Source of the DNA: Lama guanicoe
Taxonomy: Eukaryota
Length of the DNA: 64,000 nucleotides
Reading direction: 5' to 3'
NCBI GenBank assembly: GCA_013239625.1
Contig: MU053884.1
Coordinates: 1-64,000, forward strand
Shown: piece after piece, positions 4,775 through 47,450 of the stretch
Layout of the letters: the number at the start of each line of letters is the position of its first letter
How positions within the stretch are numbered: the stretch's first letter is position 1
Program-made: the position numbers and the translations under genes
The notes under the pieces: model-generated
Databases searched by the model: none
Told to the model about the DNA's origin: nothing
Seen by the model: the letters and a program-made list of their open reading frames with translations, nothing else

Positions 4775-4850
4775 CCAGAAAAAGAGCACTTCCACAAAGG
4801 GTTATATGTATACACTTTCCCCAGTTGGTAAAGGGAACATGCTCTTCTTT
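4775..4850 (-). pseudogene. ANO6: ANO6 exon 12 homologue (76 nt vs 78; 2-nt deletion)
   Basis: ttttaattag|AAAGAAGAGCATGTTCCCTTTACCAACTGGGGAAAGTGTATA...TTTTTCTGG|gtaggg = KEEHVPFTNWGKCIHITLCGSA-FFW. Confidence 0.9.
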
Positions 4851-5399
4851 CTAATTAAAAAAACAAAGATTAATGAAATGATTTTTCTCCTAACTGGTCA
4901 CTAAATCCTAGACATAATTAAAAAAAATAATTTTCAGACATAGCCTCCTTATTTGTAACTGCATGGTTTTTTTCTTCTTTTTTTTCTTTTCTTTTCTGTT
5001 AACGATGTCAAACACACAACAAAATATGTACAGTGTTCATTTTAATACTATTTTTTGAAAATGCACATGTGAACAGCAAACTGTTTCCCTGCCATGGTCT
5101 GAGATTAGGGGCCTGGGTACCTGACAAGGCCAAGCTGTAAAGCTCTATTCCTGAGCTTGCCTTAGATTTCAGAAGTGACGGTAGTGGCAGCTTAGAGTCC
5201 ATGTAGGACAGGAAGTTTCACAGGTGTCTGCAGCTAACTGGTCTCCACTGTGTGTTTCTTGATTGAGATTTATGTGTTAATTAGCTACAACTATGAAGTT
5301 TTAGAGTTTCCATTTTAGAGTTTGTATTTAATTTCATTTTTAGAGATGAAATAACTAAGACTCAAGTTTTACCTGGATAATAAAAGCAGATATAGTATA

Positions 5400-5640
5400 A
5401 TAATAGGTGTCACTAAGTACATGGCCCTTCCTCTGTGCCAGGAAGTCTTCCAAGTAGATTCTGTACATTAATAAGACCCGTCCTTACCACAGTCATGAGG
5501 AAGCAACTCTCTTGTTCTTATTTTATAGGGAACTATGGCACAGAGAAGTTAAGTTGTCCAAGATCACTCAGGAAGTAAGCTGCTGTGTTCAAATATGAAT
5601 TTAGGCAACTTCATTCCCAAGGTCTCACTACCACAATGCT
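5400..5640 (-). mobile_element. MIR SINE
   Basis: ctatggcacagagaagttaagttgtccaagatcactcaggaagtaag is the antisense MIR core. Confidence 0.65.
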
Positions 5641-6874
5641 GGCCTCTCTAAACAATGGAGCATGCATTCACAATAAAAGTAAAATGCTTCAATTAAGAAA
5701 CTAAAAAAAAAATTAATTTTTTAAATAAGTAATAATGGTAAAGTGAAATGAGTCTTCTTCAATTTTTCAACAAGCATGTTCCAATGAAAATTTAAACTTA
5801 TTAGTTGGCAATTTTAAATTTAAAATTGGCAGTTTAAATGACAAAAAAACTTTTCTTCAGTATTTTTTGTATGTTGCCAATATGATATGTTTTTGTTTTT
5901 CAGGACTCAAAAACATTATGAACATCTAATTTTGTCTAAGTTTCAGCTTTCATCTCTGAATGTACAGTCTTTCACCAACATATGCTTTGGCCCCCATCTT
6001 CAGTTGTAAACAATGGGAACTATTCATAATGGGGATTATTAGAAGCTTATTACATTGTAAAAGACAAATGTCAGTTTCTATTGGTAGCTGAACCTCATTT
6101 TTTTCCATTTATAAAGAGGACTTTGACCTGATCCCTCCAGACGTTTCAGTGCCAACATTCTGTAGATCTATGATTCAATTTATTAAATCTATAGTTGGAG
6201 ACATTTTCAGATGCTCCTAGTAAAAGCATTTTTTTCCAAGAGTTATTCAGGCTCACAACCTACTGTCCTGCTGCTGCTGACTGCAAGTACCATCAGCTCT
6301 AAATTATCTCAGCTGATGGAAAGAAGCAATAATACAGATGACACAAAAATCATCTTTTCATAGCTCTGGAATGTTGATACAAAGTTTTATATTTTTAATT
6401 TTGCAGCAAGAGTGGCAGCAATAAATTTACATTTCCAATTATATAAGATGCCTAGCTCAAACACTGTTCAAATACTGATGGCACCTCAACAAAGAATTCC
6501 CTGCTTCTTCTACCCTTTCTCTGACTTTAGGATGAGAGCCATGCTGCTTTGTGCACATCCCAAACGGAAGGGGGAGCAGTGACCAGGACTTAGTTCAAGG
6601 GGCACCTAGTCTACAATGAAAAGGAGGCCACAATAATGAAGGCACATGTGAAAAAATGGGAGTCAACTATAAAAACCAATGTGTCTTTCCTTCTACATCC
6701 ATGTCATAGTGGCTAATTTATATTTTGCATTTTTTATTGGTGTTATGAAAGAATACAAATCAATGCCTCTTTTCTTATACACTTATACCAAAATTTTTCT
6801 TTCCCCGTTTTTACTGTTATTATGAAAGAAGGACCACACTTGTCTTCTGAGTCCACCATTCCAGGCAGTGCTCC

Positions 6875-7045
6875 TTCACCTTGGCTGCACATTAGAATAA
6901 CCAGGGGAGCTTCAAAAACTTCCCTATGCCAGAATGCATCCCAGGCCACTAAGTACCATCAGAGTTTGCAGTGATGGAATCCAGGCACCAACATTTTTTA
7001 AGGTCCCCTGGTGATTCCAACATACAGCCAAGGCTGACAAGTCCA
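6875..7045. mobile_element. MER5A-like hAT-Charlie DNA transposon
   Basis: ttggctgcacattagaataaccaggggagcttcaaaaa...ccctggtgattccaacatacagccaaggctga. Confidence 0.7.
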
Positions 7046-7088
7046 GAAGTAAACAGACTAAAGTGCATCAAAACAGCACCCGCTTGTC

Positions 7089-7225
7089 CTGGGTAATCTC
7101 ATCTATCTCCACGTGGGGACACCACACCTCCTATTCTGGCCGGACTTGTTCTTCCTGTTCAACCGTGTCCAATTTGTACTCAAGTTCTGCCTGGCACCGC
7201 TTCCAGAACTCCAGAAGTATGGTGA
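7089..7225 (-). pseudogene. ANO6: ANO6 exon 11 homologue (137 nt vs 143; TAG at 7133-7131; donor GT>GA)
   Basis: ctctgttag|TCACCATACTTCTGGAGTTCTGGAAGCGG... = TILLEFWKRCQAELEYKLDTVE--QEEQVRPE*EVWCPHVEIDEITQ|gacaag. Confidence 0.92.
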
Positions 7226-7554
7226 CTAACAGAGAGAGAGAACAGCAGAATGTGGATCTTCAGTGATGACTGATGCTTCAGAAATCTGCATTTAATATTT
7301 ATTACCGTTAACACTTTGGTAAATGGTTAATAAAATCACATTTTATTTATAGATGATACTAAAGAGAAACATGAGTTAATGCCTTTTTTTAAGAAAAAAG
7401 AAAATGTAGATAATTTATTGAACTTGTGAAAACAGACTATCTAGCTCTCTAGCTCAGGGAAAGGTATTAACGTGATGGTCAGAGGCAGGTGACTGTGTCT
7501 GATGCTAAAGAACCTGCTACCAGCACATTATGCCTACTAAAAACACAAATATTA

Positions 7555-7660
7555 GGGGGAAGGGTGAGTAGAGCTCAGTGGTAGAGCACGTGCTTAGCAT
7601 GTACAAGGTCCTGGGTTCAAGACACATTACCTACATTAAAAAAGAAAGTTTAAAAAAAAA
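7555..7660 (+). mobile_element. tRNA-Ala-derived camelid SINE (Vic-1-like)
   Basis: agctcagtggtagagcacgtgcttagcatgtacaaggtcctgggttcaa followed by an A-rich tail. Confidence 0.85.
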
Positions 7661-8074
7661 CACAACTGTCATGATTTAAAAGCAGTGCATGGTCCACCCT
7701 CCACGTCTTCTCCTCACATTCCTCTGTCTCTTCTGTCCGAAGGGCCTGAGGGTGTGGAGGAGGATGAGAATGCTTTAGTAGCTCCTGCATTTCTGTTTTT
7801 CACCACCCCCGTCACACAAAATTAAAATAATATTCTTAAATATGGAAAGCTGCCATTTTCTTCAATCTTCGGTAAAGTAATTTTTAGAAATCATCATTCT
7901 GTTTTAAGACTCATAACTTCAAATAGTAGACAAAAACAACATGAAATGTTAATTGAAAATGTGGCTTCAGGGTAAATCCCCTAAGCCCTCTTCCAACCAG
8001 ACTGTTACCCCTAGGCCCCAACTCTAGAGAAATTCCAGAATAACCACTGTTCCCTCCACCATTATACCTGAGTC

Positions 8075-8860
8075 TCTACCAAGCTCTGAGAATAAAGAGA
8101 AAAAAGACACAGTCCCTGCTTCGGGGAGCTCCTAGGTGCACAGTAGTCATCGTGAAATGATGGCTGAGGAGGCGTGTTAAGAGAGCTTGGATAACAGTCA
8201 GCAGAGGGTGCTCGGGGCAGAGAGCCAGAACTTTAGCCAAGGCTCTCCCAGAGGAGGGAACCACTGTGCTGAGTTCTGAGATGCCCTAGAAGTAATCAGG
8301 TGAAGGTATAATTTTAAGGCCATTTCTCCCTGGGGAGCTGCACATGCAAAGGAGGGAGGCCAAAAAGATCCAGGTCCCTTCCAGGAACTGCAAATAGTCT
8401 AGAAGTGAGCACAGGGTGTGGGAGGCAGGTGAGGCAACCAGGTGGAGAGATCACAGGTACACATCACACAGGAAACTGTGTGCCTCCAAGGTAGAGGAGA
8501 CATGCAAAGTGATCTAGAAAGAGACAAGATAGAGGCAGGGAGACCTATTGGAAGGGTCATGTGAAGGCCTACTAAGGCCCCACCAGGAGGAGAGAGAAGA
8601 AAACATTTCAGCAGGTGGACGGATTGGCCACAGATGTGATGGAAGGGCAGGAAGAAGTCAAAGATGCCGGCCAGCTTTCTGGCTTTGGCAGCGTCCTAAA
8701 TTAAAGTGCCATTCCCTGAAATAAAAAGGGCAGGAAGAGGGGCAAGTCATGAGAGGAGACAACTGATTCAGTTCTGGCTGTGTGCCTGTGGGCTCCAGGA
8801 GAGATGTCCAGTAGGCAAATAAAAGTCTAGAAATAGGGAGAAAGTTCTAGGCTGAGCCAA
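8075..8860 (-). mobile_element. L2 LINE fragment
   Basis: aagacacagtccctgcttcggggagctcctagg...gagatgtccagtaggca are antisense L2 3' motifs. Confidence 0.6.
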
Positions 8861-9024
8861 GTAGCTTCCCTGTTTCAAGAGGCTAATGGGTGTGAGTGGG
8901 CAAGCTCAAGAGAAGAGGTATGGAGGGGTAGCTCTCATCCTCCTGCACATGGGAAGCATCTGGGAGCCTTTAAAAAATAGTGTGCCCCAGCCTGGAGTGG
9001 GGACTTTGTATTGTTTATTGTTTT

Positions 9025-9152
9025 TTAAATACTTCTTTCCTTTTTGGGGGTGTAGTTAGGTTTATTTATTTTAATGGAGGTACTGGGAATTGAACCCAGG
9101 ACCTCTTGCATGCTAAGCACGTGTTCTACCACTGAGCCAGACCCTCCCCACC
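9025..9152 (-). mobile_element. Vic-1-like SINE (inserted in a MER5A-like element)
   Basis: ggaggtactgggaattgaacccaggacctcttgcatgctaagcacgtgttctaccactgagc is the reverse complement of the tRNA-Ala head. Confidence 0.88.
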
Positions 9153-11124
9153 TTTTTTTGTTTTTAGACATTAGCTCTACTGAGAAATCAGGGTTGAGAA
9201 TCAACCTGTAGAGAGCAGAGAGCCTTGGGTTAGAGATCCAGGAGAAGCTGCGCAGAGCCCTGCAGACCCCACCAGGGGCAGCCGGAGATGCAGGGGGCCT
9301 CAGACGGGCTGTGAGGAACGTGAACTCAACACTCCCCAATGGCGAAGATGACAAACTTGTTTCAAGCACCCACTTCCCAGCAGTGTTTTTTCTGACTTTA
9401 CTAGTTTTCCAGTAATACTGAATGAGAATAGAAATAATCTGGACACAGGGATCAATTTCAAATGTTGGTTCTGACCATTCTTAGCTGCATGATTACTGAT
9501 TAAAAGGTTACCCGTGTGCCATGTGTAAAATGGTGGACCTAGAACCGTGCTCGTGGGCTGCTGTGAGCGTAATGAAATGACATCTGTAAAGGCCCTCCTG
9601 ACTCTCAGACATAATTGCTACTACTGTCCTCATTTAGGACACCAAGAAACAGAGGCACAGGAAGCTTCAAACATTTGCCCAAGATGAGGGTTGGGGTCAG
9701 GAATCAAGCCAATGACTTCTTGGATCTAGAGCCCAGCATCTTCTTATGAGCAACATGGCACTGCTCAGGCTCCCAGCTCCAAAAGCCACCTCCCTTTGGC
9801 TCAGTTCCATGGCACCTGTGATGCACAGATGTCATCACTGCCCGCCTGCCCACCCGGTGTCTGACTCCGCCACTCCTCCCTCCATCCCACACACTGCTTC
9901 CTTGGGCACACGAAACCTCACAAGGCCATTGCTGTGGCTACTCGGATGTTGACACAGAAACGCAGGTGGCAGCCCAGCTTTCTTCTATAGCTGCTGCTGT
10001 CAGTGGAGGCAAAGAGCTCACAGTTGGTGAGAGAGGCCATTTCTGGTCTCCCCCTTGGCTGGAGAGCTGGATGGAATCCAGTTTCCTTCTGCAACTTAGA
10101 CATCCAGCATGAGAGATATGTAAGGCCATCTGGCCTCTCAACATAGAAATGATGCCCCTGCAGTCGTACTTAACATTGTAACCTCCTGGCTCCACCAGCA
10201 AGCAGAGGCCATGGCTTATTGTCCACCAAGTTTTGTTTCCTTGCACAACAGCTACAATTGGGTGAGTTAACACCGGACCAGAAAATCTACAAAGCCCTCG
10301 TGTACTATTTCCTGACACTTGCAGGTCACCCAAATACCCCAGATCCTCCAAGAAAACAACTAGTAAGAGGAACTGAGATGGCTCATCTGTCAGATCCCTG
10401 ATGGCAGGGCTGATGTGGCCTCTTCTGCTCTCAGGATGATCCATTCTCCTTCTATGTGCCCTTCCCCGAGTGCAAGAGACTGTTCTTTGTTTATGGGCTG
10501 GGGAGTATTTGTGGCTCTCTGACCAGAACCTTTAAAAGTAGAGCTCTTGGTGAGAATGGAAGCATGGCACCCACATCTCATGAGCTCAGCTACCCAACAG
10601 CCTCATCTAGTCAAGACTATGGCCAAAACCAGGGGTCCATTCTGTTGAGTGTTGGGTCTGGAAAGCAATGCCTCCACCACTGAAAAGCTGTCCCACCACT
10701 TGTGCCATTGTCCCCATCCAGGGGGAGGGGACGCATCCATGGGATGAAAGCATTGAAGGCACTAGGTGACTGTGGACCAAGCTGTGACTGGCTGGTCCTG
10801 CTCCCCATGTAACCCATGTTAGCCTCATATGCAGAAAATCCCCAAAGAGACCCCTGCTTGAGTGAATTGGTCACCTATAAGCCAACTGTTCTCGGGCCAC
10901 CTAAGGAGCAACACAGTATACACAGTGAGCCACCCACTCACTGAATTCCCCAAGGCTCACAGCTCCCTAAAGTGACACCAGGTACCCCCAGCAAACAGAA
11001 GACCCTTACTTTATAAGTGAATTTAGAATTCTACTGCCAACACTGCCTTCCACCTTCCACTTATGAAGTTCCTTCCACTCTGTCCCCTGCTCTGAAATTG
11101 TGCAATCAGTCCAGAGCTCCTTCA

Positions 11125-11732
11125 TGAGACAGGAGGGAAGGGGGCCGGGCACAGCCATTAAAAGAATGGCACAGCCATTAGCACCAAGACGATGGAAAAG
11201 TCAACTCCCTTTAGGTCTTGAGCTTCAATACACACTCACCGAAATATAGCAGGATGCTAAATGGCACTCCGACAGGTGCCAGGACAGGTTCAAGGCTGAC
11301 CATAAAAGGTCAAAGGGTGAGTGGTGGCCCAATTTCTGGGAATGCCAACACCTTCCCCAAAGCGGTTGGAATATTCCTCCCACTTATAAGCATATGAAGA
11401 TACTTAGTTCATAAAACTAACCCCACACCTCTTGGCCACTCACTCTGCTGAGGGAGACAGCCCACACTCTGTCTGTGGAGTGTGTATCTACATTTACTTT
11501 AAACTGGAGCACCCAAACCCCACATTTCATGGCCTTTCTCTTGCCTTCTGAAACAGCCCACTCTGTCTATGGAGTATATATCTCTCTGAATAAATCTACC
11601 TTTACTGAACTGTGGCTCTCTCTTGGATTAGTTCCTTTGCAAACCAAGGACCCACACTTGGTGAGGTGCATCCCAGGGACCCAAATAAGAACTGGGATAC
11701 GGCCATCCTCTCCCCCATATTTTCCTGTATCA
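11125..11732 (+). mobile_element. Solo ERV LTR (probably ERV1 class), 608 bp
   Basis: TG...CA ends with terminal inverted repeat TGAGACAGGA / TCCTGTATCA, internal AATAAA near 11589, 4-bp flanks ttca/taca. Confidence 0.85.
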
Positions 11733-11759
11733 TACATTCCTTCCCAAAGGATCTCACCT

Positions 11760-11932
11760 TGTGCACTCCAAAATTGACAGCACTCATGTGTCCTGACCTG
11801 GATCTGCTTCTGCATGTATCATTTCTCATGTCCACTAGAACATTGCCTTCATGAGGACAGGGATTTGGTTCTGTTCACAATGGAAGCACCAGCACATTAC
11901 AGGTGCTGGAGAAGTATTAGCTGAATGAATGA
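11760..11932 (+). mobile_element. L2 3' end
   Basis: ccactagaacattgccttcatgaggacagggatttggttctgttcac...gctgaatgaatga. Confidence 0.7.
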
Positions 11933-14010
11933 GCTGTGGGAAGTCCTGGGAATTCCACCTGGAACTCCTAGCCACTTGGGACCCAGCTGACTCCAGTTGC
12001 TCCCTGCTACCCATGGCTGACCTCTTGCCACCACTCTCTGCTCTGCCATCACCTGAGCTAGGATGAGCTGAGATAAGCACACACCCAAGAGAGCATGGTG
12101 GCTGATTTATGAGCTTACAAAACACTCGCCCTCTGACTGCCAGGGGTTGCTTAGGATGGACAAACTGAAGGCAGCACCATGTGCACCGCCCTACCCCACA
12201 ACTCACTTGAAGCACCAGGACTGCACACAGGGGAAATACTGGCCCTTTCCAACCTAAGGAGAGGGACTATGGGTGAGAAGAGGGTCTCTGTCAACTAACA
12301 GTCTCTTTACAAACCCAGTCTTAGAAACCTCTTTAAAGACACTTTTTGTATCTTCCTTGTGTTTCTGTAATCCCTCTAGATTTTGTCGTTTTAATCTATG
12401 CATCAGAAATACAGATGCTCTTGAAATCTCTATTGATTTTCAATGAAGAAAATCCTCAATTACCTTCTCTGCTAAGAAAATTACTGCACTTTATATAAAA
12501 AAAATCAGCTTCCTTTCATGAGTTTCTATCTTCAAACACCTAATTTCACAAGAATCAGTGAAGCAGGACATGAAAATAATGCTGTGCTTTATCACCTACA
12601 GGTGGGTAGGAATGAAATGAATGAGTACTGATCTCATGAGATGGGAAGGCTGGGGCTGTCTTATTCCTGCTACAGATGGAAGGGTCCATATCTGTGAGGG
12701 TGAGGAAGGACCAAGGATTAGAAACAAACATTTTCTAACCCATTTCTCTTTTTCAGAGTCACAGACAATACAGTGTGATTGTATCAAGAAAAACAAGAAC
12801 ATCAGCACTCTTCTAAAAGCACGCTACAACTTTACTACTACACACGGCCCTCTGTCACTGACATAAAGGCTGATGACAGCCAAGAAATTTGCAGGGATCT
12901 TATTCTGTGCTCATCCCTTTTTGTCTTTGGAACCTCAGGATATTTGCCTCCTCTCCCTGAGTGTCATTTTCCTCATCCTTCATATGGGAGTGTAACAGTC
13001 ATTCATTTGCTCAGTGTCTATTTGACAACAGGAGGCGGCTTATGAAAACAACAACAAAAAAAGCAAAATAGCAATTGTGATCTGTGCTGTCTTCCTCCTC
13101 CTCCCTGAACATGAACGTACAGGGTAAAATGGCATCTTTCACTAAATCCCAAATTTAAGGAGCAGTTCTGATAAGGATGTCACAGGACTGCCGGGAAATG
13201 ACCTGGTGAAAAAGAATGAGTTGCCAGAAAATCCTCAAAACCCATAAGGGTGTAAACCCTGGGAGCTACAGGCATGGGTGGGAGATCCTTATTTCCCCAT
13301 TTCACAAAGCCGAGAACTTTGCAGGGTCCATAAAAGACACAGAGAGCCCAGTACAACCACACCATGTTTTGGAGTACACTGGGGCCAAATCGCTGCTGAG
13401 CTACACTTCTTTGTGTCCCAGAGCAAGAGTCCTGGGTGGGGGTGACTGTGTTTGAGGCTGGACAAGAACTTCCTGTTCTGTCTCTTTTGCTCTCTCTCTT
13501 CCTGCAATAAAACAACTGGTAGGACTTTGGTAGGGAGCACTGCACCCACATTCTCTGGCAAACCCCACACCAGGCAGCTCTAGCTGATCTGAGAGAGGAC
13601 TTTTCAATGAAAATACATACACCAAAGTCAGGCAGAAGGCTGCCTGTGACCTTGGGAATCCAAACCAGCTTGTCCTGTTAATCAGGATATTAGACATCTA
13701 AAGAAAGTCTGCACCAGATGAAGATGATGCCTTAGACAGTGTTGGTGGTTATGTGCAGCAGTGTCTAAGGACAAGTCATGCTCTGGTAGATGGGAGCAAT
13801 TTGGTTGCTTTAAGTTTGCTACTAAATGGCTGGGACGTTTCATTGGGCCTTGAAACTCCAGGCCTCTTTATTCACAAAGGCAGACAAGTTAGGTTAGCCA
13901 GCTCAGCCTTTATTCCAACTTCCTAACCAAAATGCTGTGAGGTTGAAAATATATTTCTCAGACTTTTATGCAGCATGGGTTCCAGAAGTGCCCTTAAAAA
14001 TTCCCATCAG

Positions 14011-14250
14011 AGATTGAGATTTGCAAATATTAACTACTATATATAAAAATAGCTGAAAAAAATAGTTTCTTCTGTATAGCACAGGGAACTATATTTAATA
14101 TCTTCTAATAACCTTTAATGAAAAAGAATATGAAAAGGAATTCATACATATATATGTGTATATGAATGACTGGAACATTGTGCTGTACATCAGAAATTGA
14201 CACATTGTAACTGACTATACTTCAATTAATATATATATATATATATATAT
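14011..14250 (+). mobile_element. 5'-truncated L1 3'UTR insertion with target-site duplication
   Basis: L1 3'UTR motif ctgtatagcacagggaactatat...tatacttcaatt, (TA)n tail, TSD aat(t/g)cccatcag at 13999-14010 and 14251-14262, TT|AAAA target site. Confidence 0.9.
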
Positions 14251-15559
14251 AATGCCCATCAGCAGCATCTGAGTGTCACTGAAAACAGAAGCCCTGATGA
14301 ATGGAGGCAGAGGTGGTTGGAGGAGCTACGTTATTTTGCTGGGGTGGATTTAGCTGGCATGGCAGAGATCTAGAAGGAATGGTCACAACAGCCACTCACT
14401 GATCTGCAAATGAGTTAGGGTAACAGCTTCCTGAAATCCTCCCCGCCCCCCCGATGAGCCAGGTGTCTGGTGATTCTCTGGAAATCACTAGGCGCAGTCT
14501 GGAACTAAAAGGTAAAATTTAAAAACTGCAGTCATGCAGTGAAGAGACTGGCAGGACACGTTGGACAAAATTAGGTCAGAAACAACAAGGAAAGGGGAGG
14601 GGATAGAACCTGTGCTGAGGACCCTGACTTCAGTGGTGGATTGTCCATGTTGAGGACTGTGAGTCAGTATGAGTAGATGGATTGGTGTGGACTAAAATGG
14701 TGGCCATTGTTCAGATAAGTGTGTGATTTGGACTATATTTATTAGAGGAGGGTTTTTTTCCCCTTCAAAATTGATCATTTCTAGGGAGCAGAAAAATACT
14801 CTGCCACACAATATCTAAGAGCAAAAGAGATGCTACGGGATGATGGTGGTATGAAAAATTTCATTTCTGCACATCCAAGGTTTCCTTAATGAGGTTCACA
14901 GCAGTAGGTACATAAAATAATGACATCATCATATGTACATATCCTTAAAGATACACATATGGTGCTATAAGTGGGCCTGAATTGTGGTCTGCATTCTAAA
15001 ATCAGATGAAATAAAACCAGTAGCTCAATATGCCTGTCGGCTCTATAAACATGATGTAGTTAATGGTCACAGAAAGCAAGATCAGCTTGGAAATTTGATA
15101 TTTGTCTTTTCCAGTGTCAAAGCTAATACTTTTTGCTTTACTTAAAAAGCATTTTTTTAATTAGGGCTGTCAGCATCCATTGGTATACGGGGTTCAGTAG
15201 ATGTGTTCAGATGTTCTAGACAGTGAATCAGAGCAAAGACTGAGGTTTAGACAGTAGTTAAATGTCTCACCCGTATGATCAGCACCCACATACTGCTATA
15301 CTGAAAATCCTTAAAAGTGAGAACTTCATTAAAGCAATGAAAAGAGAGGGAAAAAGAATAGCCACAGACTAGTGGAAGTTTTGTAAAGTGTAAAAATGAC
15401 AAAGGGCTATTCATGAGCACATTTTTAAAAACTCCTACACTTTAATAAGAAAAACAACAAACTGACAACAGGTTGCACACTGCTCCTTGTAGGAGAAACC
15501 ATGCAGATGGACTCTTATGTGAATGGGGCTGGAGCTGTAGAATTAGTTAGTCTTGCAAG

Positions 15560-20910: not shown

Positions 20911-20916
20911 TTGAAG

Positions 20917-33510: not shown

Positions 33511-33560
33511 TGTGCTCTTGGCCACATCTCTTTTTTTTTTTTTTTTTTTGGGGGGAGGGA

Positions 33561-34102: not shown

Positions 34103-34326
34103 CTAAAATGATTCTAAGAGAGTGTGTGGTTTATACAGAGTAACTAACCAGCCACTGTTTACTATCCTAACAGGAATCTGTAGGCATATTTCTTTTCCTT
34201 CTTTTTTTTCCTTTTTATGGGCAGCTTTTAAAAACCAAACCAAACCAACTAAGCCAAATCACTGATAATTCAACAGCAGGTTCTAACTCACCCCCAAGAC
34301 AGCAGCTAAACTTGGTTTAGACTTAC

Positions 34327-35488: not shown

Positions 35489-35553
35489 TGATCAGGTTGC
35501 TCCCAGCTGCAGACCATCACAGATGAGGTTAGAGTCATAGGCTCATATTTTCT
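35489..35553 (-). pseudogene. ANO6: ANO6 exon 4 homologue (about 65 nt vs 66; frameshift, TGA codons)
   Basis: ttttgacag|AGAAAATATGAGCCTATGACTCTAACCTCATCTGTGATGGTCTGCAGCTGGGAGCAACCTGATCA|gtgtca = RK/(*)AYDSNLICDGLQLGAT*S. Confidence 0.88.
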
Positions 35554-37050: not shown

Positions 37051-37054
37051 TTTT

Positions 37055-37277
37055 TTAACATATTTGTTGATTTATAATCATTTTACAATGTTGTGTCAAA
37101 TTTCAGTGTTCAGCACAATTTTTCAGTCATTCATGGACATATACACACTCATTGTCACATTTTTTTCTCTGTGATTTATCATAACATTTTGTGTATATTT
37201 CCCTGTGCTATACAGTGTAATCTTGTTTATCTATTCTACAATTTTGAAATCCCAGTCTATCCCTTCCCACCTCTACC
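37055..37277 (-). mobile_element. Short young L1 3'UTR insertion, antisense, with TSD
   Basis: Reverse complement of the 3'UTR seen at about 280-510; flanked by caaaattttt at 37045-37054 and 37278-37287. Confidence 0.88.
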
Positions 37278-37329
37278 CAAAATTTTTAATCAAAGTTTTC
37301 TTTTCATATTATTTGCAATAAGTTAGGAG

Positions 37330-37620
37330 CCAGCACTGTCAATAGAAACATAGTGCAAGTCACAATTTTCCAGTAATCCCATTAAGACAATAAAAAGGAA
37401 CAAGTGTACTTAATTCCAGTAATAATTATATTTATCCCAAAATATCCAGTATACTATCACTTCAAAAGTGTGTTTAACACTTTTAAAACTTAATAATAAA
37501 TATTTTACGTTATTTTTGTTGTACATAGTCTTCAAAATCTATTATGTATTTTCCACTAATAGAACATCTCAATTCACAATGGCCACATGTGGCTAGTGGC
37601 TACCATACTAGACAGAGCAG
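37330..37620 (-). mobile_element. MER33-like hAT-Charlie DNA transposon
   Basis: cagcactgtcaatagaaac...ggccacatgtggctagtggctaccatactagacagagcag. Confidence 0.75.
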
Positions 37621-37800
37621 TTACACCATTCATACTTCTGATAATTACCTGCTCTTACTTATTTAAAAAACTTGCAGAAAAGACTTTAGATATTCCCTAT
37701 ATCAAACAAATCAACCTTGACAGGTGGGGAGTATCTTCATTATAAATTGAAAAATAAAGGTAAGAGAGCCATGGTTACATGTATGTTAATGTAACAATAC

Positions 37801-37926
37801 CTTCTTAATACATTCAGGACTTTACAATCTTTCTTCATATGCCAAGGATTCACTGTCACTGCACAATGTTTTTCACTATTATCATCTTTGGAATTGAGAG
37901 GCTTCTGATGACCCTGCTTTGTGCAT
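37801..37926 (-). pseudogene. KLHL2: Isolated KLHL2 (Mayven) exon 2 copy, 126 nt, open frame, canonical splice sites
   Basis: ttctcttatgtacag|A TGC ACA AAG CAG GGT CAT CAG AAG CCT...TTA AGA AG|gtattg = CTKQGHQKPLNSKDDNSEKHCAVTVNPWHMKKDCKVLNVLR, versus recalled human CTKQGHQKPLDSKDDNTEKHCPVTVNPWHMKKAFKVMNELR. No other KLHL2 exon found. Confidence 0.92.
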
Positions 37927-37982
37927 CTGTACATAAGAGAAAATAACAAAACAGAGAAAAAGGCCTTATTAAAGATAATTAA

Positions 37983-38138
37983 GGGGGGGAGGGTATAGCT
38001 CAAGTGAAAGATCATATTCTTAGCATGCACAAGGGCCTGGGTTCAATCCCCAGTAGTTCTTCTAAAAATAAAATAAATAAATAAAAACCTAATCACCACC
38101 CCCCTGCAAAAATTAATTACTTTAATAAAAAGTTTAAA
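37983..38138 (+). mobile_element. Vic-1-like SINE with TSD
   Basis: gggggagggtatagctcaagtg...tagcatgcacaagggcctgggttcaatccccagta; TSD aaagataatt at 37971-37980 and 38139-38148. Confidence 0.88.
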
Positions 38139-39204
38139 AAAGATAATTTAGTGCACGCTTATCAGGCTACAAGAGCTACAATGAATGTCTCTCCCCCATT
38201 AATTTAGAAGAAGTCTCACAGTATTTCCCAACATAAAGGCTAAAATATAATTCAGAACACTTTCTGATGATCAGCATGATTTTAACAAAAAAGTAGATAA
38301 TTACCTCCCTGGTGTCAAAGCACTGTCAGAGATGTGCACAGAAAATTTAGTAAAAACGATTTTGCAACTACCTTTGAAAAAATGGTGAGAAATGATCTTT
38401 TCTGTTGGAAATTAGTCTGCTTTTACATTCTGCAGTAGGCATACGTGTTTACAAACCAGGCAGGAACTGGATCATATTTTACACATACCTTAGAAACTGA
38501 TTTGAATTTTGCTGTTTACCTGCAAGGCTATTTTTAAGGTAATAACATAAGCTGGACACTGTACAAAATTTTGTTTCCCTGTTTGCTTAATCCTCACAAC
38601 AACTCTGAAAGCTGCTATTATTACCCCCATATAACAGATAAAGAGCTTGAGGCAGAAAATAATTTGGGTAACTTTGTAAATGGTGGAGCTAGGTAAGACT
38701 GCAGCCAGTCTGACACTGAAGTCCATTCTTCTCACCGATGTCTGATACTTCTACCTACATTCAGCAATGACCGTTGATTTCATATTTAAATGTAATTTCT
38801 AAAAGTGCAAAGCTATATTAGTACTGCTGTGTAAATTATACTTTTGAGATGTGATTGCCATAAAAACAAAAACAAATAAAATCAGGTTGCCACCAGGGGG
38901 AAGCTGAACTGCATATGAACGGAAACAAGGGGACTTTTTGAGGACACAGTTGCACAACTCTAGAAATAGCTATAATGGCTGCCTTGTACAATTATAATGT
39001 GTGAATTTAATGGACTGTAAATTACACCTTAATACAGCTATTAAATTAAGAAACTGGGATACCAAATTAAGACTACAACACATATATATATCACACAAAG
39101 AACAACAGGCAAATATCATTATTTACTGAACCATTTCCCTTCATGCAGTTTCCTTTCCTCACTTGTTCCTGAAAGGATGAATCATTTTTAAAATAGTCTT
39201 TTAA

Positions 39205-40210
39205 TCTATTCAGCAAATAAATTTTGACTTCCTACTATGTACCTAGGACTAGTCTAGGAACTTGGAATAGATCAATAAACAAAACAAAAGTCCTGTCCTC
39301 ATGGAGCTTGGTTGGAGTCTAGCTGGGGTGGGGGGTGGAGATGGCAATTCACACAACAGAGAAGCAGAGGAGGTGGCATGTTAGGAAAGAAGAATCATGG
39401 AAAAAATATAAAGGGCATGGTAAAGAGAGTTGAGGGTATGGGATGAGGGTGGTGTTGTATTAAATACCAGAGCAGGCCACACTGAGGAAGGAGGTTAGAA
39501 CTAGGACTAGGAGGTGAGAAGTCCCAGGTGGACGGAATAACCATCACCAAGGCCAGCGTGCACCTCGCATGTTCCAGAATGGGGGCACGGCTGGAGCTGC
39601 GGAGAAGGGTCAGTACAGATCCTGTATGGCCTTGGAGGACGTTGTAAGGACTGTGGCTCTTACCCAGAGTGAAATGGGGAGGCACTGCAGAAGGATGACA
39701 CAATCTAACTTAGGTTTTCAAGGCTCACTTGAATGCCGGATGAGAATAGTCGAAACGGGTCAGAGATGAAAGGAGGGAAGCCACTGAGAAGGGCTGTGCA
39801 GGAGAAGAGGACAGTGGCTCAGGGCAGGGAAGCAGCAGTGGAGGCAGGAGCCATGGTGAGAAGTGGCTGGGCTCTGGATATGTTTTAAAGGCAGTGTTAA
39901 ACCAGATCAATTGACAGAATTCATGTGGTATGTTAGTGAAAGTCAGAATAACTCCAAGTTTTTTGACCCAAGCAGCTGGAAGGATTAAGTTTCCACTAAC
40001 TGAATGGAGGGTGCTGCAGAAAGAACCAGCTTGGGGGTAGGAGGACCAAAAGCTCAGTTTTTACACATGTAGGTTTTAAGATATCAGAGTTCCAAGTGAA
40101 GATGTCAAATCAGCAGATGATTGTAACAGTCCAGAGTTGGAGAGAAAAAGTCTAGCAGGAGACAGAAATGTGGGAATTATGGGTCACACAGGTGGTACAG
40201 GAAGACATGA
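39205..40210 (-). mobile_element. L2 fragment
   Basis: attcagcaaataaattttgacttcctactatgtacctagg...gtcctgtcctcatggagctt...ggctctggatatgttttaaaggcag. Confidence 0.75.
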
Positions 40211-43200
40211 AACCCAGGTACTCAAACATTAAGATAACATGGCATTAACCATAGAAGTTGTCCTTGAGGGCCTGCCTACTAGGTGTGGATATCAGTCCTA
40301 TTTCCCGACCACTCGAGTTTTAAAAAGGAACTTACAAATGAATTCGTGCAAGACACTGCCTCCAGGGGGTGGGATCAGAGCTAGAGTGGGAGAATAGGAT
40401 TTTGCACGCTACTCCCTACGGCAGAATGTATGTGCTTGTGTGTGTGTATGCATGTGTGTGTGCGCAGGGCGATGAGTTACACCTGGCTTAAGAGAAAGAG
40501 CTAGTAGGTCTAGAAGCCGAAAGATGAAAGAACATCCAGATCTGATAGAGGGAACAGGGGAAACACTGTGTACTGTAAGACATATCCACATAATGCCATT
40601 TCCCACCATCCTTTCATCAGGAAGACAGTTAGAAAGGGGGGAATTATGTAGATACGTGCGATGACACAAACTTTCTGACTATGTAACACTGAATATCTAC
40701 ATATGTAGCAAGTTAATGATATTTATATCTGTTTCAAGTTTAAAAACAAGTTCACAACAGAGGGAAAATAAAATATTGAGGACTGGTAGAAGTATCATAG
40801 AAGGCCTTTCAATGCTCAGAATGGAAGCAAAAGCAGCTTCACCCCACAAAGAATGGCGTTAAGGGTCAAGAATGTTTATATTTGCTTAAGAAATTGAGAG
40901 TTACAACTTCCTGCTTTAAAGAATTAACTTTAAGACAGATACCATAATACAAGCAACTTCTATAGTGGTGCATTCTTAAAGCTATTTTTAGTTCCTGCTT
41001 TTTCTGATGTACTCCAGAAACTCTGCAAAGAAAACCTTCTATTCAAAGGCTTAAAGGAATAAAAAAAGAAATAACACTGCATTCTTCTAAGTGTTCCCTG
41101 TACTGAAAGTCACTTGCAAATGCAGCACCCTGCCACACGTCTACATTTTTAACAATAAAGTCCTTTGCGCAAGTTTTCAATTGCTATGTGACTTTGTGTC
41201 AGTCTGTCACTCAGAAGCAGAATGGAGTACCAGAAAATGACACATCATGTCTAAAACTACAGATGTGGAAGATGAACGTACACCAGGAAACAGCTAAGTG
41301 GGAGGGTAAGGTTTCCCTTTAAGTTACCGTAAGTGCAGTTACACCTTCTCCCTGCTTCCCTTGTGAAGTGAAGAACTAGTCTTTTCCAGAAAAGCTCTCA
41401 TTCAGAGAACTGCCTTCTTTAAAATATTTGGAGATTCTGTTTTATGGTTCTTTCACTTTTAAGTCTTTCCCCAACTCTACATCCAATAACAAGTGTTAAA
41501 ATTATCCAATAGCCTATTTCTACAGAACATACTCTACAAAAGCTGAGGTTTCCCAGGGTTTGGATCCCAGAACTCTGCCACCAGATAATCCTAAAGCCTT
41601 GCTTCCATAACTGACTCTTCTGCCAATTCCCAGCTGCGGGCAAATTCGGCTTCTCAGACCAGGTAACTTTCTAACTCTGCCTACGAACATTCTACAGCCA
41701 GTAAAGGAACTCTCAGCCAGGAAGCACACAAAGCCCCTAGTGAGGGTTGCGTCTTTCAAACAATCAAGATGCCATCACCAAGCAAATATTTAAACCTACT
41801 GTAAAAGTTCTGAAGCCATCTTAGAAACAATATAGTTTCTATAGATGCCTACAATTTGCTCTGGAACAGTGATCTCCAATGGAGGGAATATAGGACCCCA
41901 TGACCCAAGCAATTTTTTAAAACTGCACACAACAGTCCCTCTTCACATGAGGACTCAGGCAAGCCCGTCTTATAGGTCTAGGTGTAACAGAATGACAGCA
42001 GCTCTAGGAGTAGGGTGAAAAGCAGCGAGGTAGACTTTTAGTGAAAGGCAGTGATGTAATAGGCCCCATCACCCACTTACCTCCCACCATAGGACAATCA
42101 TCTCAGATCGAGAACAAATACTTTGGGAAACAGAGGTTGTTTATGTTTTTATGGTTTTCTGGTGGAAATAATGCCCTGAGTCATGTGAAGTTGTGGCTAC
42201 CAAACTGAACATGGGACCAGACATTTTCATGTTCAGGACACAAATAACCCCCGGGTTACCACCATATCTGCTCTCCCCTTTGCCTGTTCACCCCAAAAGC
42301 TGCAGGACTCTCCTGCTTGCAATGACACCCACCACATCTCACAAATTCCTGCCAAGATCATGTCAGCAGCTGGTGGTGTCAAAGTCACCATTTGTACTGC
42401 TCTGAAGTCCCTCAATTCCTTTATATCCCTTCTATTTTCTCTGTTGTCTTCTTAGCTACACTTGCATTCAGAAGCTGGTTATTGCACTAACATTGCCTCT
42501 GTAATCAGTCCACGATATAGGAAGTAGAGATTCAACTGTAACCAGTCCCAGAATACTTGTCATGCCACTCTAGTTTCCCAACAAAATACTCTGGCATCCC
42601 TCATCTCATCCAAAGAACCACCGCATTACTTAGAGGTTGTAAAAGTAGAGGGCTTTCTCTACTGGGAAACAGTGTTGCTTGTGGTAGAGTTGTCATTTCA
42701 GTTTTTGTAACTAGTTACAGGCAAAAAGACATGTTCTGCAAATTTTCTTCAAGCATTTGGAATTTAAATTTTTATTAGATACAGAGCCAGCGGACTAACT
42801 GTAATCTATGAACATATGGTCATATTACCAAATAATGTTCATGTCTGCCTTACAGACATGTAAGAACTTGAATTACACCTGCAGCCTGTAGGCCTTTAGA
42901 ATTGGATGTGAAACATCCTGTGAGATAAAAAACCTCCTATCCAGTCACAGAGAACCTTACAGACAACATCACATTATTGCCACTGAATACATTAGTAGAT
43001 TCCATGTATGTTTAAATTACATCTCCAATTTCTCAGAGCTGGAAAGCAGATGTCTAGAAATGCTGGAAAAGCCCAATTACCAAAACAGTTCAAAAGTTGA
43101 AGCAGACTCCTTCACCTCCCAGAGCGGAGGGTGGAGTGGCTTTGCCCACCACCCTGTCCTCCCCCATGGCGTGGCATGTGGGGAAACAGGCAAGAGTGGG

Positions 43201-44059
43201 TGGCTGGGACTCGGAGGTGGAGAGGTGATGAAAGCAAGAGTGGAAATGCTCTGGTCCTTGAAAAACAGAGCTGTAAAAAGCTCGGCTTCAGTTCAACCCG
43301 CTCCCTCTCCCAATTTCCCTCCCACCTACGTGACAAACAGAACACAGTCAGGCACTTTCTGCCCATGACAGTGACTACTAGCAGGAAAGGGACCAGGATA
43401 AAAGCATGTCCTATAAAAGATCAGTCTGATTTTAAAGACTATGTTATAAATAATGAACAGCACTGTCAGAGTGGGACAACTGTGAGGCACTCAAATAGGA
43501 AGGAGGAGGCTGAGGATCCATTTCCAGCACTTCCATGTCTTTTATCACTCCTATTTCTGACCTTTCCTTTGCCACTTTTTGTAGCACTGCCATCACTGGC
43601 AGGTAAAGGGGCAGCAATGGGGCTTGGCTGTTTTACTGATCGGGCTACATTTCCCAGCACCGGAATGAAAAGGCACTGGAAGAGAAGCAGTTGGAAGATA
43701 TGAACCGCGGTCCTGGCCTGTGCCAAACACTAACCAGGTGACCCTGGGTTAGGCTCTTCGTCTCTCTGGGCTTCCGGCTGTTTACTTATAAAAGAAGGTT
43801 TTGTCATTGCACAAATATATCCAATATGAAATGTAACATGAAAGTCAAACATAATGACATCTCACCTGCTTGCCTCAGGGAACTGTATAAGCACTGAACA
43901 CTATGTGAATGTAAACACAGAGTTAAGAAAACCGTTGAGGTAAAGCGCTAAACTGAACATGGAGATAAAGTTTTATGGATTTTCTAGGTTTTCTTTTTTA
44001 ATTGCAACACTGAATTAATAGTTATTAGCTATACTCCACACCACCACCCCTGCGAAAAA

Positions 44060-44880
44060 ATATAGTAGGTAAGCACTGCCTGGATGCCTGCTATTGCCCG
44101 ATGCTAAGCAGGGTGAGGGTTATAAAGGAGGCTGAACAAGGGAGTCTTCTCCAGTTATGAGCTAAATGAGGAGACACATTGGAAACCACCTGGGAATAGT
44201 ACCAAGTCAGTACTCAAAGCCAAGATAACAGGCTACCAATCATAAACAGTGCAGGAATACAAAGAGGAGCTAGAAGTATTTGGAGTAAATAGGGAAGGCT
44301 CTAAGAAGGGTATGGGGATCCAACTAGTCCTCAGGGCAATTCTAAGCTGTTTTAACTGAGGACTGGATAGGAAAAGGCTGGTGACTCCTGGTTTTTAATA
44401 AGGCACATGTTACCCTAGCAGGCTAAGTCACATAATGATTGGAACACATAAGGTAAGGCCAAAGTGATGGAGGGTCGAGACTACCTGGCTGAGATCTGGT
44501 TGTGGTAAGTCTTTGACTTGACTCTAGATGTTGGAGGGTCAAAACTGTAGGTTGACTGAAAGGAGGGTGAGAGAATATCCAAGAATTCAACAGAAGGAAA
44601 AATTCATATATCATGTATGAAAGCTCTTCATCAGAGTATCAGCAATCAGAATAGACACTTGAAACCAAAAACATACAGTTTCAGAAGCTGAAAAAATGTG
44701 GAGGGTGGTGAGAGGAAGATGAATCAAAGACCATTCCAAACCTTTGGGTATTCAAGACAGGAACAATGATTATCCCACTGAATTAGTAGAGATGCTGCAA
44801 GAAAAAAGATTATGAAATCAGCTTTAGACATGTTGAATCTGACATATGAGCTAAAAGTAGGTGTTCTCTAAGAAGCTCAA
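44060..44880 (-). mobile_element. Degenerate L2 fragments
   Basis: gatgcctgctattgcccgatgctaagc...cagctttagacatgttgaatctga. Confidence 0.5.
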
Positions 44881-44929
44881 AATTCAAAACTGAAGCACAG
44901 ATGTTGAGTACAGGCTTCAGATGCAGATG

Positions 44930-46048
44930 GACAAGACATGACAAATCTCCTAAAAGAAAACATAGACAAAACATTATCTGACATAAATCTTAGCAACGTT
45001 CTCCTAGGGCAATCTACCCAGGCAATGGAAATAAGAGAAAAAATAAACAAATGGGATGTAATTAAACTCATAATTTTCTTCACAGCAAAGGCAACCATAA
45101 GTAAAACAAAACATCAACCTATGAATGGGAGAAAATATTTGCAAATGATAGGACTAACAAAGGCTTAATTTTCAGAATATATAAACAGCTCATACAACTT
45201 AATAACAAAAAAACAAACAACTCAATCCAAAAATAGGCAGAAGACCTAAACAAGCATTTCTCCAATGAAGACACAAATGGCCAATAGGCACATGAAAAAA
45301 TGCCCAATATCACTAATAAACAGAGAAATGCAAATCAAAACTACAATGAGGTATCATCTCACACCAGTCAGAATGGCCATCACTCAGAATTTCATGAATG
45401 ATTAATGCTAGAGAAGCTGAAGAGCGTAGGGTACCCTCTTACACAGCTGGTGGGAATCCAGTTTGGTGTAGTCATTAAGGAAAGCATGGAAATCCCTCAA
45501 AAAACTAAAAGTAGGCTTACCCTATGAGCCAGCAATCCCACTTCTGGGTATATAACTGGAAGGAACTCCAATGTGAAAAGATACCTGCACCCCAGTATAC
45601 ATAGCACCACTGTATACAATAGCCGAGAAATGGAGGCAAGCTAAATGTAGCAACAGATGACTGGATAAATAAATTCTGGTATATTTATACACTGGAATAC
45701 TACTCTACCATGAAAAGGACAAAATAAAACCATTTACAGCAACATGGATGGAGCTAGAGATCGTCATTCTAAGTGAAAGCAGCCAGAAACAGAAAAATAC
45801 CAAATTATATCACTCATATGTGCAATCTAAAAGAAGAGAGAAAAAGACACTGTGAACTCATCTACAAAACAGAAACAGACTTGCAGACTTAGTAAACAAT
45901 CTTAAGGTTACCAGGGAAAGGGGATGGGAAGGGATAGATCTGGGAGATTTACAAATTTTAGCCACTATAAAATAGATTTTAAATAAGTTTCTTCTGTATA
46001 GCACAGAAACCTATGTTCATTATCCAGCAATAACCTATAATGAAAAAG
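44930..46048 (+). mobile_element. L1 fragment (ORF2 3' part and most of the 3'UTR), truncated at both ends
   Basis: NLLKENIDKTLSDINLSNVLLGQS... ORF2 remnant; ends at taacctataatgaaaaag without the last ~110 nt and tail seen in the 14011-14250 copy. Confidence 0.9.
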
Positions 46049-46089
46049 CCGATACAGCCACCAACTGAGGAAGCAAGAGAAGAAAGGGG

Positions 46090-46965
46090 AGTTAGTTATG
46101 CTGGGCAAGACCCCACCTCTAAAATCCTTGTCAGGCACTGAGGCTGCCCCGAGTACACTGAGCCCTCCTCCCAGGGGCAGGCTGACATGACATGTGTCCT
46201 GCAAACCTGGGGCAGCAGAGGCTGTCCCCAGGTCTGGCCCTGGGGGAGATGGGAGCAAGTCCACCTGCTCTCCCTGGGGCAGCACCCCTCCCCACAGCCC
46301 TTGCCTCCTGACTGCACCACGCCTGCCTCTCGGGAAACCACTGACTTGAAAACAAGTGATCCACGAACCTGGGGCAGCGGCAGGGAGATGGGCAGCGACC
46401 TGGCAAGCTGGTCGATTTGCCCCCATCTCCCCCACGGCCTGTCCAGGGCTCGGCCTCTGCTGCTCCAGGCAGAGTCCCCAGGTCAGCCTGCTCCCGGGAG
46501 GAGGGTGCTCTGTGGTCGAAGGCAGTTGCTGGTTATGGGGTCTGCCCATGGGTGCCTTTGGATTTGCTTCAAACTCCCCAGCGCATGGCCTGAGCTTGGC
46601 CTCTGCTGCCACAGGTTCGTGGAACTCAGGTTACAGGTCAGCCTGCTCCTGGAAGGCGGGTGCTGTGCTGTCAGGGAATGGCGGCGGCTGCGATGGCGGG
46701 ATTGGGGCTGCCTTGTGAGAGCGCACGGATTGCAACCATTTCCCACTGCTGCTGCAGCCATCCTAGCACACTGATCACACTGCGTCCACCTCCCAGGAGC
46801 AGCCTGACCTGTAACCTGAGTCACAAAAACCTGGGTATTTAGAGGCCACCCCCAAGGTCAGGCCGTGGGGAAGATGGGAGCAACTCCAGGGGCTCTCATG
46901 GGGCAGCCCCTATTCCATCCCAGGCCCCGTGACCGCACTGCACCCGCCTCCTGGGAGCAGTCCAT
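46090..46965. repeat. Degenerate GC-rich ~158-bp tandem array with an internally inverted block (about 46405-46746)
   Basis: Anchor motif CCTCCCAGGAGCAGGCTGAC occurs on + at 46167, 46326, 46789 and 46947, and on - at 46482-46501 and 46637-46656; spacings 159, 155 and 158. Confidence 0.8.
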
Positions 46966-47450
46966 GGTCTGAGGGCAAGTCGGAGATGCTCCGAAGCCGT
47001 CCGGTTCCCACCCACCTCGCGGGGCTGTACCTGCTCTCCTAAACCCGGGTGTAAGCGGCGGCAAAAACGGGGGTTCAGGAACTACTAATAGCCGGTTTAC
47101 CACGAACTACAGCGGCGGGTGGGACCCACCTCAGTGTCCTAACGTGACGCGCGGCCGGGACTTCACCTCTGCACCCCTCCCTGGGCGCCTCCCCAGCCTC
47201 ACAGCCCAGGCGTCACCCGCCGGCTCCTCGAGCAGCGCGCCCCTAACAGCGCTCCCTTGACTGCCTGGCAGCGGCAGCCGAGCCCCGGGCAAGCGGCGGC
47301 CCAGACCCCAGGCCGTGTTCCTCTTCCAGGAGCTGGTCCAGGAGCAACCAGCTCCCGCCTGTTTCCACGCATTCTGGGCGGGTTCCGGCGTCCGCGCGTC
47401 GGTCAGTCTACGTGTGCAAGCCCCTCCACCTCCCGCCTGCAGCGCAAACT
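46960..47450. promoter_or_regulatory. CpG island / candidate promoter and first exon
   Basis: Dense CpG relative to the rest of the window; GC box GGGCGGG 47376-47382 next to ETS TTCCGG 47383-47388; ACGTGACG 47142-47149; minus-strand donors GAG|GTGGGT (GT at 47129 and 47015) and CAG|GTACAG (47030). Confidence 0.65.

Follow-up and report, generated by a model that had tools for sequence, protein, structure and literature searches.

How do pieces of two unlinked genes come to lie side by side on one strand, and is anything made from them? The question is raised by a 64,000-nucleotide stretch of the guanaco genome (Lama guanicoe, assembly GCA_013239625.1, contig MU053884.1, positions 1 to 64,000), here called the window, in which a copy of exon 2 of KLHL2 stands on the minus strand a short distance upstream of exons derived from ANO6. 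An earlier note had read this arrangement as a lineage-specific fusion locus, a potential chimeric transcription unit with a CpG-island first exon. Our answer is that the window is very probably one of about 50 copies of a mosaic segmental duplication, old and restricted to camelids, that carries a fusion pseudogene. In the course of events that we propose, about 9.4 kb of KLHL2 would have been joined to ANO6 from intron 3 onward, the joining taking place inside L1 repeats at corresponding places of both parental introns. Upstream, in the same orientation, lies the contribution of a third source, a GC-rich block that includes a CpG island, and the composite of at least 64-90 kb would then have been copied to many contigs, where it occupies some 50 places. 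Both parents, KLHL2 and ANO6, are still intact. The copies are now about 9% apart and are gaining stops and frameshifts, losing splice sites and undergoing CpG decay, all, by our reading, at the neutral rate. On paper, the CpG core, KLHL2 exon 2 and the ANO6 exons can still be spliced together, and annotation pipelines call chimeric proteins from the better-preserved copies. The genome searched was the window's own assembly (2.05 Gb in 55,231 contigs), and the copy numbers given throughout are first-look candidates from this fragmented assembly, no census.

The KLHL2 exon is the simplest place to begin. Read on the minus strand, positions 37926 to 37801 form an exon of 126 nt with an AG acceptor at 37928-37927 (...tgtacAG) and a GT donor at 37800-37799 (GTattg), and its frame, open throughout, translates from 37925 as CTKQGHQKPLNSKDDNSEKHCAVTVNPWHMKKDCKVLNVLR. 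The 41 codons correspond to KLHL2 residues 10-50 (tblastn E 2e-17, 80% identity), and a search of 5.8 billion proteins matched them to KLHL2 of many mammals (83% identity, E ~1e-14); 7 of the 41 residues differ from the same genome's own KLHL2 exon 2. The earlier description of a 126-nt exon 2 with an open frame and canonical splice sites thus agrees with both the sequence check and the protein matches, and its distance of about 2.2 kb upstream of ANO6 exon 4 was measured as 2,247 nt to position 35553. About 51 copies of this exon were counted in the genome. It sits in a KLHL2-derived segment (37279..46047, minus strand), delimited by alignment to the true locus on contig C8970, that reaches from the proximal part of intron 2 through exon 2 into intron 1, of which it holds the distal 8 kb. 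Against C8970:2863970-2872643, the window matches at 86.1% over 37279-37983 and at 84.7% over 38139-46047 (8,075 columns), and the KLHL2 piece as a whole amounts to about 9.4 kb, of which 1.3 kb is intron 2. Between the two aligned parts lies a short interspersed element (SINE, 37984..38138) without counterpart in the true KLHL2 intron 1, of which at least the first 67 nt (37984-38050) were found in all 39 other scored copies; judged from these alignments, it is a shared derived marker of the copies. A second, SINE-like insertion (37055..37278), 95% identical to a repeat elsewhere, is private to the window copy among the nine examined: it is in neither C8363 nor C2810 nor in seven other copies. 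Full-length tblastn queries of the window with a non-camelid KLHL2 (P0166) and the alpaca ANO6 (P0071) detected neither exon 1 nor exon 3 of KLHL2, which the earlier note had also missed, and no ANO6 residue ahead of 86, and a search of the minus strand at 44-50 kb for KLHL2 exon 1, by the N-terminal motif of P0166, found nothing.

Downstream of this piece, the window is ANO6. The ANO6-derived segment (1..36650, minus strand) runs from within intron 3 downstream and was traced by alignment, tblastn and colinear copies; positions 33774-36836 match the true gene from intron 3 to exon 5 (C8676:7162101-7165196) at 82.8%. Where exons 4-12 had been claimed, only seven exon remnants are detectable, all on the minus strand, and they carry in-frame stops and indels. 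The exon 4 remnant (35489..35553) has 65 nt against 66 in the true gene; it keeps the AG acceptor before 35553, has lost 1 nt of the exon and 4 nt at the donor, and is interrupted in the ANO6 frame by a TGA. The exon 5 remnant (34324..34611), part of the Anoct_dimer domain and present in about 52 genome copies, is broken by a 3-nt deletion and a TAA. Matches by tblastn define the remnants of exon 6 (33982..34141), which is frameshifted and falls into two high-scoring segment pairs, of exon 7 (31639..31761) and of exon 8 (26550..26696), as well as one that covers P0071 residues 369 onward (6915..7250, counted among the seven as about 7250-7040), contains an in-exon stop and matches in its 3' part sequence that P0071 appears to read through. 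The last remnant, at 4779..4850 (EEHVPFTNWGKCIHITLCGSALF), came from gene-model mapping. Residues 321-368 of ANO6 were looked for in the window and in C8363 and not found. The ANO6 part of the window is a pseudogene.

Where the two genes meet, both parental alignments enter one interspersed repeat at 36293-36840. The L1-derived repeat in question (36293..37053) is present in both parental introns and holds the crossover between them. It is the 3'-terminal part of an L1 and matches window 25670-26518, directly after the open reading frames (ORFs) with L1 domains of an element that lies in the ANO6-derived intron (21870..26518, plus strand). That element, also present in C8363 and C2810, carries ORF1 and reverse transcriptase domains (Pfam Transposase_22 at 21870-22343, RVT_1 at 24530-25426), and its 3' end is the same type of repeat as at the joint. 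Sites at which the two parents differ were taken as diagnostic and counted when at least seven of nine copies follow one parent. The number following ANO6 and KLHL2, respectively, is 49 and 15 over 36293-36600, 7 and 10 over 36601-36650, 1 and 8 over 36651-36700, and 3 and 36 over 36701-36840. All nine copies examined have the same crossover, at about 36600-36680 within the L1 homology. We infer a single founding event, either L1-L1 non-allelic homologous recombination or homology-guided template switching, with a joint that can be placed within about 80 nt inside the L1 repeat and that was amplified after it had formed.

At its other end, the KLHL2 homology breaks off at 46047, where an L1 3' end once more forms the border. 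Beyond this point, 3 kb of the true locus (C8970:2861001-2863969) show no similarity to the window and contain no CpG island, and none of the 150 places scored in a six-frame genome search with a 198-aa ORF from the CpG core is on C8970. Because KLHL2 homology stops there and C8970 offers no match, we assign everything from 46048 on (46048..64000, minus strand) to a third source segment, and not to KLHL2. This segment is commoner in the genome than the other two: across 46.2-47.7 kb there are about 291-301 candidates, against 51-52 for the KLHL2 and ANO6 parts, and the counts fall from 291 (46.2-46.6 kb) through 108 (52.0-52.4 kb) to 71 (62.2-62.6 kb). Possibly KLHL2-ANO6 joined a duplicon family that was older and larger. 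The search with the CpG-core ORF (149 matches) gave no obvious single-copy parent, Pfam recognized no family among the 39 ORFs that reach 90 aa in the interval 46-64 kb, and a protein search with residues 1-146 of P0121 matched only P0121 itself.

As to the CpG island itself, which the earlier note had placed about 9 kb upstream, a CpG island by the definition of Gardiner-Garden and Frommer has at least 200 nt, a GC content of at least 0.5 and an observed/expected CpG ratio of at least 0.6. These values are reached by a residual core of 400 nt (47001..47400; GC 0.685, ratio 0.83), so that part of the claim stands; the surrounding 46048-48700 fails (ratio 0.37), and the rest of this 2.6-kb GC-rich block is CpG-depleted. 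The same core has a ratio of 0.51 in C8363 and 0.59 in C2810 against the 0.83 of the window, values that fit progressive loss with some difference from copy to copy.

The arrangement just described is not peculiar to the window: each of its parts is multi-copy in the genome, a fact that had escaped the earlier note. A 351-nt stretch around the KLHL2 exon has 39 further full-length matches at 89-95% identity. A 284-nt KLHL2 probe, taken without the 5' SINE, gave 51 candidates (40 scored, 39 of them non-self at 90-95%), and a 401-nt probe for ANO6 exon 5 gave 52 (40 scored, 39 non-self at 88-94%). Both pieces occur together on 26 contigs besides the window's, at a spacing of 3.07-3.51 kb in 23 of them and 5.1-10.8 kb in the other three; in the window it is 3.45 kb. 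The nearest copy, on C2129, is 93-96% identical in four probes. Over longer distances, both C8363:135464-202907 and C2810 run colinear with window 652-63999, interrupted only by local insertions. The homology between C8363 and C2810 extends from C8363:117996 to at least 207751, the end of the compared sequence, and their left flanks are unrelated. ANO6 exon matches reach residue 837 in C2810 and end near residue 767 in C8363, and the copies therefore have different ends. The duplicated unit thus spans at least 64 kb in the window and about 90 kb or more in C8363 and C2810.

A segmental duplication is usually defined as sequence of at least 1 kb that is shared at 90% identity or more and is not a transposon. 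In length, the unit is far inside this definition, at least 1 kb being shared between non-allelic sites; in identity it lies at the border, with 90.8-91.4% when only substitutions are counted (59,509-84,879 sites) and 87.8-92.1% by BLAST with gaps. Single-copy parents were identified for two of the three segments: an intact KLHL2 at C8970:2871986-2969664 (75-96% identity to P0166, no stops) and an intact ANO6 at C8676:7099050-7162939 (91-98% identity to the alpaca protein); that of the third segment was not found. The parental alignments bear out the earlier view that duplication brought DNA of two unlinked genes together in the same orientation.

How old is the family? The p-distance between copies is 0.086-0.092 over the 59,509-84,879 sites shared by the three long copies, and 0.046-0.090 (median 0.063) over about 1.96 kb in nine copies, among which the window and C2129 form the closest pair. 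Copies differ from the ANO6 parent by 0.120-0.131 (about 3,000 sites) and from the KLHL2 parent by 0.104-0.125 (about 680 sites). Mammalian neutral rates are around 1-2.2e-9 per site per year, and at such rates the copying would date to about 20-45 million years ago, with the founding somewhat earlier. Gene models that contain both KLHL2 exon 2 and ANO6 exon 5 are P0002 and P0004 in Camelus ferus and P0007 in Vicugna pacos, and ANO6-like fragments with substitutions diagnostic of the family occur in C. ferus, C. bactrianus, C. dromedarius and V. pacos; by annotation, the duplicon is on several chromosomes in Camelus and Vicugna. This distribution agrees with the family having arisen before the two camelid tribes separated, and the arrangement, called lineage-specific in the earlier note, has so far appeared only in camelid database records.

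What, then, could be made from such a copy? In the window, exons of two parents with usable splice sites stand on one strand, and no open frame leads across the junction into the ANO6 frame. Splicing from 37801 to 35553 reads AGA GAA AAT ATG AGC CTA TGA, exactly the R-E-N-M-S-L-stop that had been foreseen. The true ANO6 exon 4 has 66 nt with codon borders at both ends, and KLHL2 exon 2 ends two bases into a codon; because of these parental exon phases, the canonical join of exon 2 to exon 4 is out of frame in the whole family, and the earlier conclusion that it could give no fusion channel holds. A transcript of the window copy, if there is one, would be non-coding or would end after a short KLHL2-derived peptide. 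The proposed path from a first exon in the GC-rich block through KLHL2 exon 2 to ANO6 exons is nevertheless used by gene models of Camelus ferus and Vicugna pacos: first exons of related models map to 47372-47256 and 47440-47249, and the model P0108 has an alternative first exon (46350..46472, minus strand) that is spliced straight to ANO6 exon 4. To obtain long ORFs, the models leave out exons, read through the exon 2 donor, or follow exon 4 in its +1 frame as far as a cryptic GTATGT donor near 35357. Frame and exon use vary from copy to copy, and the same frames carry stops in the window copy. All of these chimeric proteins have XP_ or UniParc accessions and are hence predictions. P0108 was considered as an ORF derived from spliced RNA and set aside because its UniParc record is a model. 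Shares of 0.17-0.19 of the sampled words occur in four RNA-seq runs labelled 'reproductive system metagenome', next to which three raw-read RNA runs were listed; such shares are no evidence of expression.

The alternative that survives best holds that this is a functional amplified gene family, in which the duplicon has been kept for the sake of a chimeric RNA or short protein that part of the copies express, the candidate products being a fragment with the ANO6 dimerisation domain or a KLHL2 N-terminal peptide. Predicted proteins of 184-353 aa with an Anoct_dimer match do exist for several copies in four camelid species, the window copy has retained its CpG core, and among 26 copies of ANO6 exon 5, 10 are open and full length, with the acceptor AG present in all 26 and the donor GT in 25. 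By the NG86 method, moreover, four open copies gave a ratio of nonsynonymous to synonymous rates (dN/dS) of about 0.21-0.45 (0.19-0.45 as first noted for a few copies), a value that would speak for constraint; it was not confirmed by a larger test, which used all 26 exon 5 copies in 13 disjoint nearest-neighbour pairs and re-placed the base changes at random on matching bases and CpG contexts. These pairs hold 153 nonsynonymous and 51 synonymous changes (0.75), against a neutral expectation of 0.735 (p = 0.69), and the three pairs in which both members are intact hold 30 and 11, against an expected 0.74. Nor is exon divergence below that of the flanks: for exon 5 it is 0.0545 against 0.0405, and for KLHL2 exon 2, over nine copies, 0.052 against 0.057.

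The state of the exons tells the same tale. KLHL2 exon 2 has 126 nt in all nine copies; stops occur in two of them, AG is kept in seven and GT in six. Sixteen of the 26 exon 5 copies, the window among them, are broken, and two different 1-nt deletions are each common to several copies, so disabled copies went on being duplicated. In C8363 as in C2810, at least five ANO6 exon matches are interrupted by stops or frameshifts. From these comparisons, the exons read as decaying neutrally, and with frameshifted subfamilies that kept being copied and predicted proteins that differ in frame and exon use between copies, a functional family appears unlikely.

Exon 5 offers one further observation. Its acceptor is ATATAG in all 26 amplified copies (window 34612-34617) and ATACAG in the true ANO6. 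A TAG was at one point taken for a stop within exon 5 common to most copies and was rejected, since the alignment shows it to belong to this acceptor; six-frame searches count it as a stop and can mislead.

Could a transposon have done the work instead, moving KLHL2 exon 2 into ANO6 and through the genome by L1 3' transduction or as the cargo of a Helitron or a long terminal repeat (LTR) element? L1-derived sequence does lie exactly at both borders of the KLHL2 segment, and the GC-rich block has some 290-300 candidates in the genome. Transduced flanks, however, are no more than a few kb long, and the copied unit here is at least 64-90 kb rather than a few kb with a short flank. Introns, which exclude a retrocopy, are retained for both genes (KLHL2 intron 1 over 8 kb) and can be aligned with those of the parents. 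In their introns, the parents also have the L1 pieces of the joint, and no transposase or reverse transcriptase ORF belonging to the ends of the unit was seen, as far as these could be followed. We regard capture by a transposon as very unlikely.

The single fusion locus at the ANO6 gene, formed by one rearrangement that made one chimeric transcription unit, has in its favour the common strand, the canonical splice sites and the CpG core upstream, but with ANO6 intact on C8676 and KLHL2 on C8970, the joint and both its flanks present about 50 times in the genome, and stops in the ANO6 exons of the window, it is hardly tenable. An assembly artefact, whether misjoined contigs, uncollapsed haplotypes or contamination, is scarcely credible either: the assembly is fragmented (55,231 contigs), several copies lie at contig ends and the window contains a run of 204 N (33561..33764, between the remnants of ANO6 exons 6 and 7), perhaps an assembly gap, but the identical crossover in 9/9 copies on separate contigs excludes the misassembly that the earlier note had named as its refutation, the 4.6-9.0% between copies is too much for haplotypes, some copies are deep in large contigs (C2129 at 7.58 Mb, for example), and independent assemblies of Camelus ferus and Vicugna pacos gave models that span the joint.

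Some points weigh against a mosaic segmental duplication with a decaying fusion pseudogene, or against parts of it. Its restriction to camelids rests on database annotation and not on other artiodactyl genomes. The role of L1 rests on the gradient of diagnostic sites, and in 36293-36600, 15 of 71 sites point to the wrong parent for that interval. Three copies were compared over tens of kb and the other 47 or so through probes of 284-401 nt, so many of the latter may be partial. Uncollapsed haplotypes could inflate the copy number, a concern against which the distances of 4.6-9% speak where allelic pairs are meant. Lastly, the open exon 5 copies, their well-kept splice sites and the CpG ratio of 0.83 in the window are compatible with some transcription or weak constraint.

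A few observations concern the ends and the internal structure of the copies. Window 1-651 leaves the colinear path of the other copies and matches a repeat elsewhere, and the ANO6 exon for residues 492-566, present in C8363 and C2810, is missing beside it; the stretch is possibly a contig-end artefact or an insertion. C2810:143938-144140 retains ANO6 remnants for residues 770-837, past the point (C8363:117996) where homology to C8363 ends. As for the upstream segment, the contigs that have two copies of it in opposed orientation, 9-300 kb apart, include C837, C8825, C895, C4123, C4868, C6062 and C1709, an example being C8825:186047(+) and 194780(-), which suggests inverted-pair or clustered arrangements. 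Within the segment, direct repeats of about 0.8-1 kb (49644-50458 and 53279-54101) are 75-82% alike and 3.63 kb apart; no Pfam domain was found between them, and either an ancient pair of LTRs or a local duplication could account for them. An inverted repeat with 173-nt arms (48806-48978 and 49246-49418; 87% complementary, 267 nt apart) probably consists of two SINE-like elements head to head. Imperfect inverted repeats (75-76%) in the GC-rich block, at 46206-46292/46383-46469 and 46597-46674/46771-46848, form a pattern that recurs in other copies. Rfam, run over the whole window, gave only three tRNA-like matches, read as SINE heads.

The main value of the KLHL2-ANO6 duplicon lies in annotation and in the study of duplication mechanisms. 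Dozens of camelid models named 'anoctamin-6-like' or 'uncharacterized' probably come from these pseudogenes and should be taken neither for ANO6 paralogues nor for gene loss or gain, and camelid read mapping, copy-number analysis and variant calling near ANO6 and KLHL2 will be confounded by about 50 look-alikes. If most copies are full length, the family would by extrapolation account for several Mb of sequence. The SINE at 37984-38138 and the shared frameshifts are markers with which the burst can be dated against the split of Camelini and Lamini, and the window offers a well-resolved three-part mosaic duplicon outside primates.

Pseudogene-rich repetitive blocks have been described in the alpaca, where the main text of PMC13751797 (Chromosome Res 2026) lists NEK10-like (19 copies), ATF5, FMN2-like and ABHD17A-like sequences among others, read by its authors as segmental duplication followed by degeneration. 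Like those blocks, the KLHL2-ANO6 family is multi-copy, fragmented, gene-derived sequence in camelid genomes; the blocks of PMC13751797 are reported as absent or reduced in Camelus, however, whereas KLHL2-ANO6 members are annotated in both Camelus and Vicugna. That main text contains no mention of ANO6, KLHL2 or anoctamin, the alpaca Y-chromosome paper has no mention either, and in the literature searched for ANO6 or KLHL2 in camelids we found no paper describing the KLHL2-ANO6 family.

Comparison with better-known systems shows where the family stands. Drosophila jingwei, primate PIPSL and TRIM5-CypA are chimeric or fusion genes that arose by duplication-mediated exon shuffling. As in genes of this type, a 5' part with a promoter-like region has come to lie, in the same orientation, upstream of the 3' part of another gene and the parents have been kept; unlike them, KLHL2-ANO6 has an out-of-frame junction, disabled downstream exons and a roughly 50-fold amplification as a pseudogene. 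Further analogues are the primate core-duplicon families such as NPIP and NBPF. By this analogy, the KLHL2-ANO6 block together with the commoner GC-rich segment might be the camelid counterpart of a core duplicon, a subset of whose copies would be transcribed, perhaps in the germ line, an idea that we put forward as an improbable one. If it were true, copies in which the CpG promoter is still unmethylated and exon 5 still open would yield chimeric RNAs or short proteins with a fragment of the ANO6 dimerisation domain. The ANO6 scramblase and KLHL2/WNK signalling would be possible targets of such products, which might also be sources of small RNAs, and the duplicon would also shape camelid chromosome architecture. 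With known mosaic duplicons in general, the family shares a block of tens of kb assembled from unlinked loci, its presence at many sites, repeats at the junctions, and fusion gene structures with predicted chimeric transcripts. It differs from them in being camelid and old, its copies being about 9% apart and so at or below the usual 90% cut-off, and in that no selection, positive or purifying, was detected in the exons tested. The kind is thus a known one, a mosaic segmental duplication with a fusion pseudogene, and the KLHL2-ANO6 duplicon is a new member of it.

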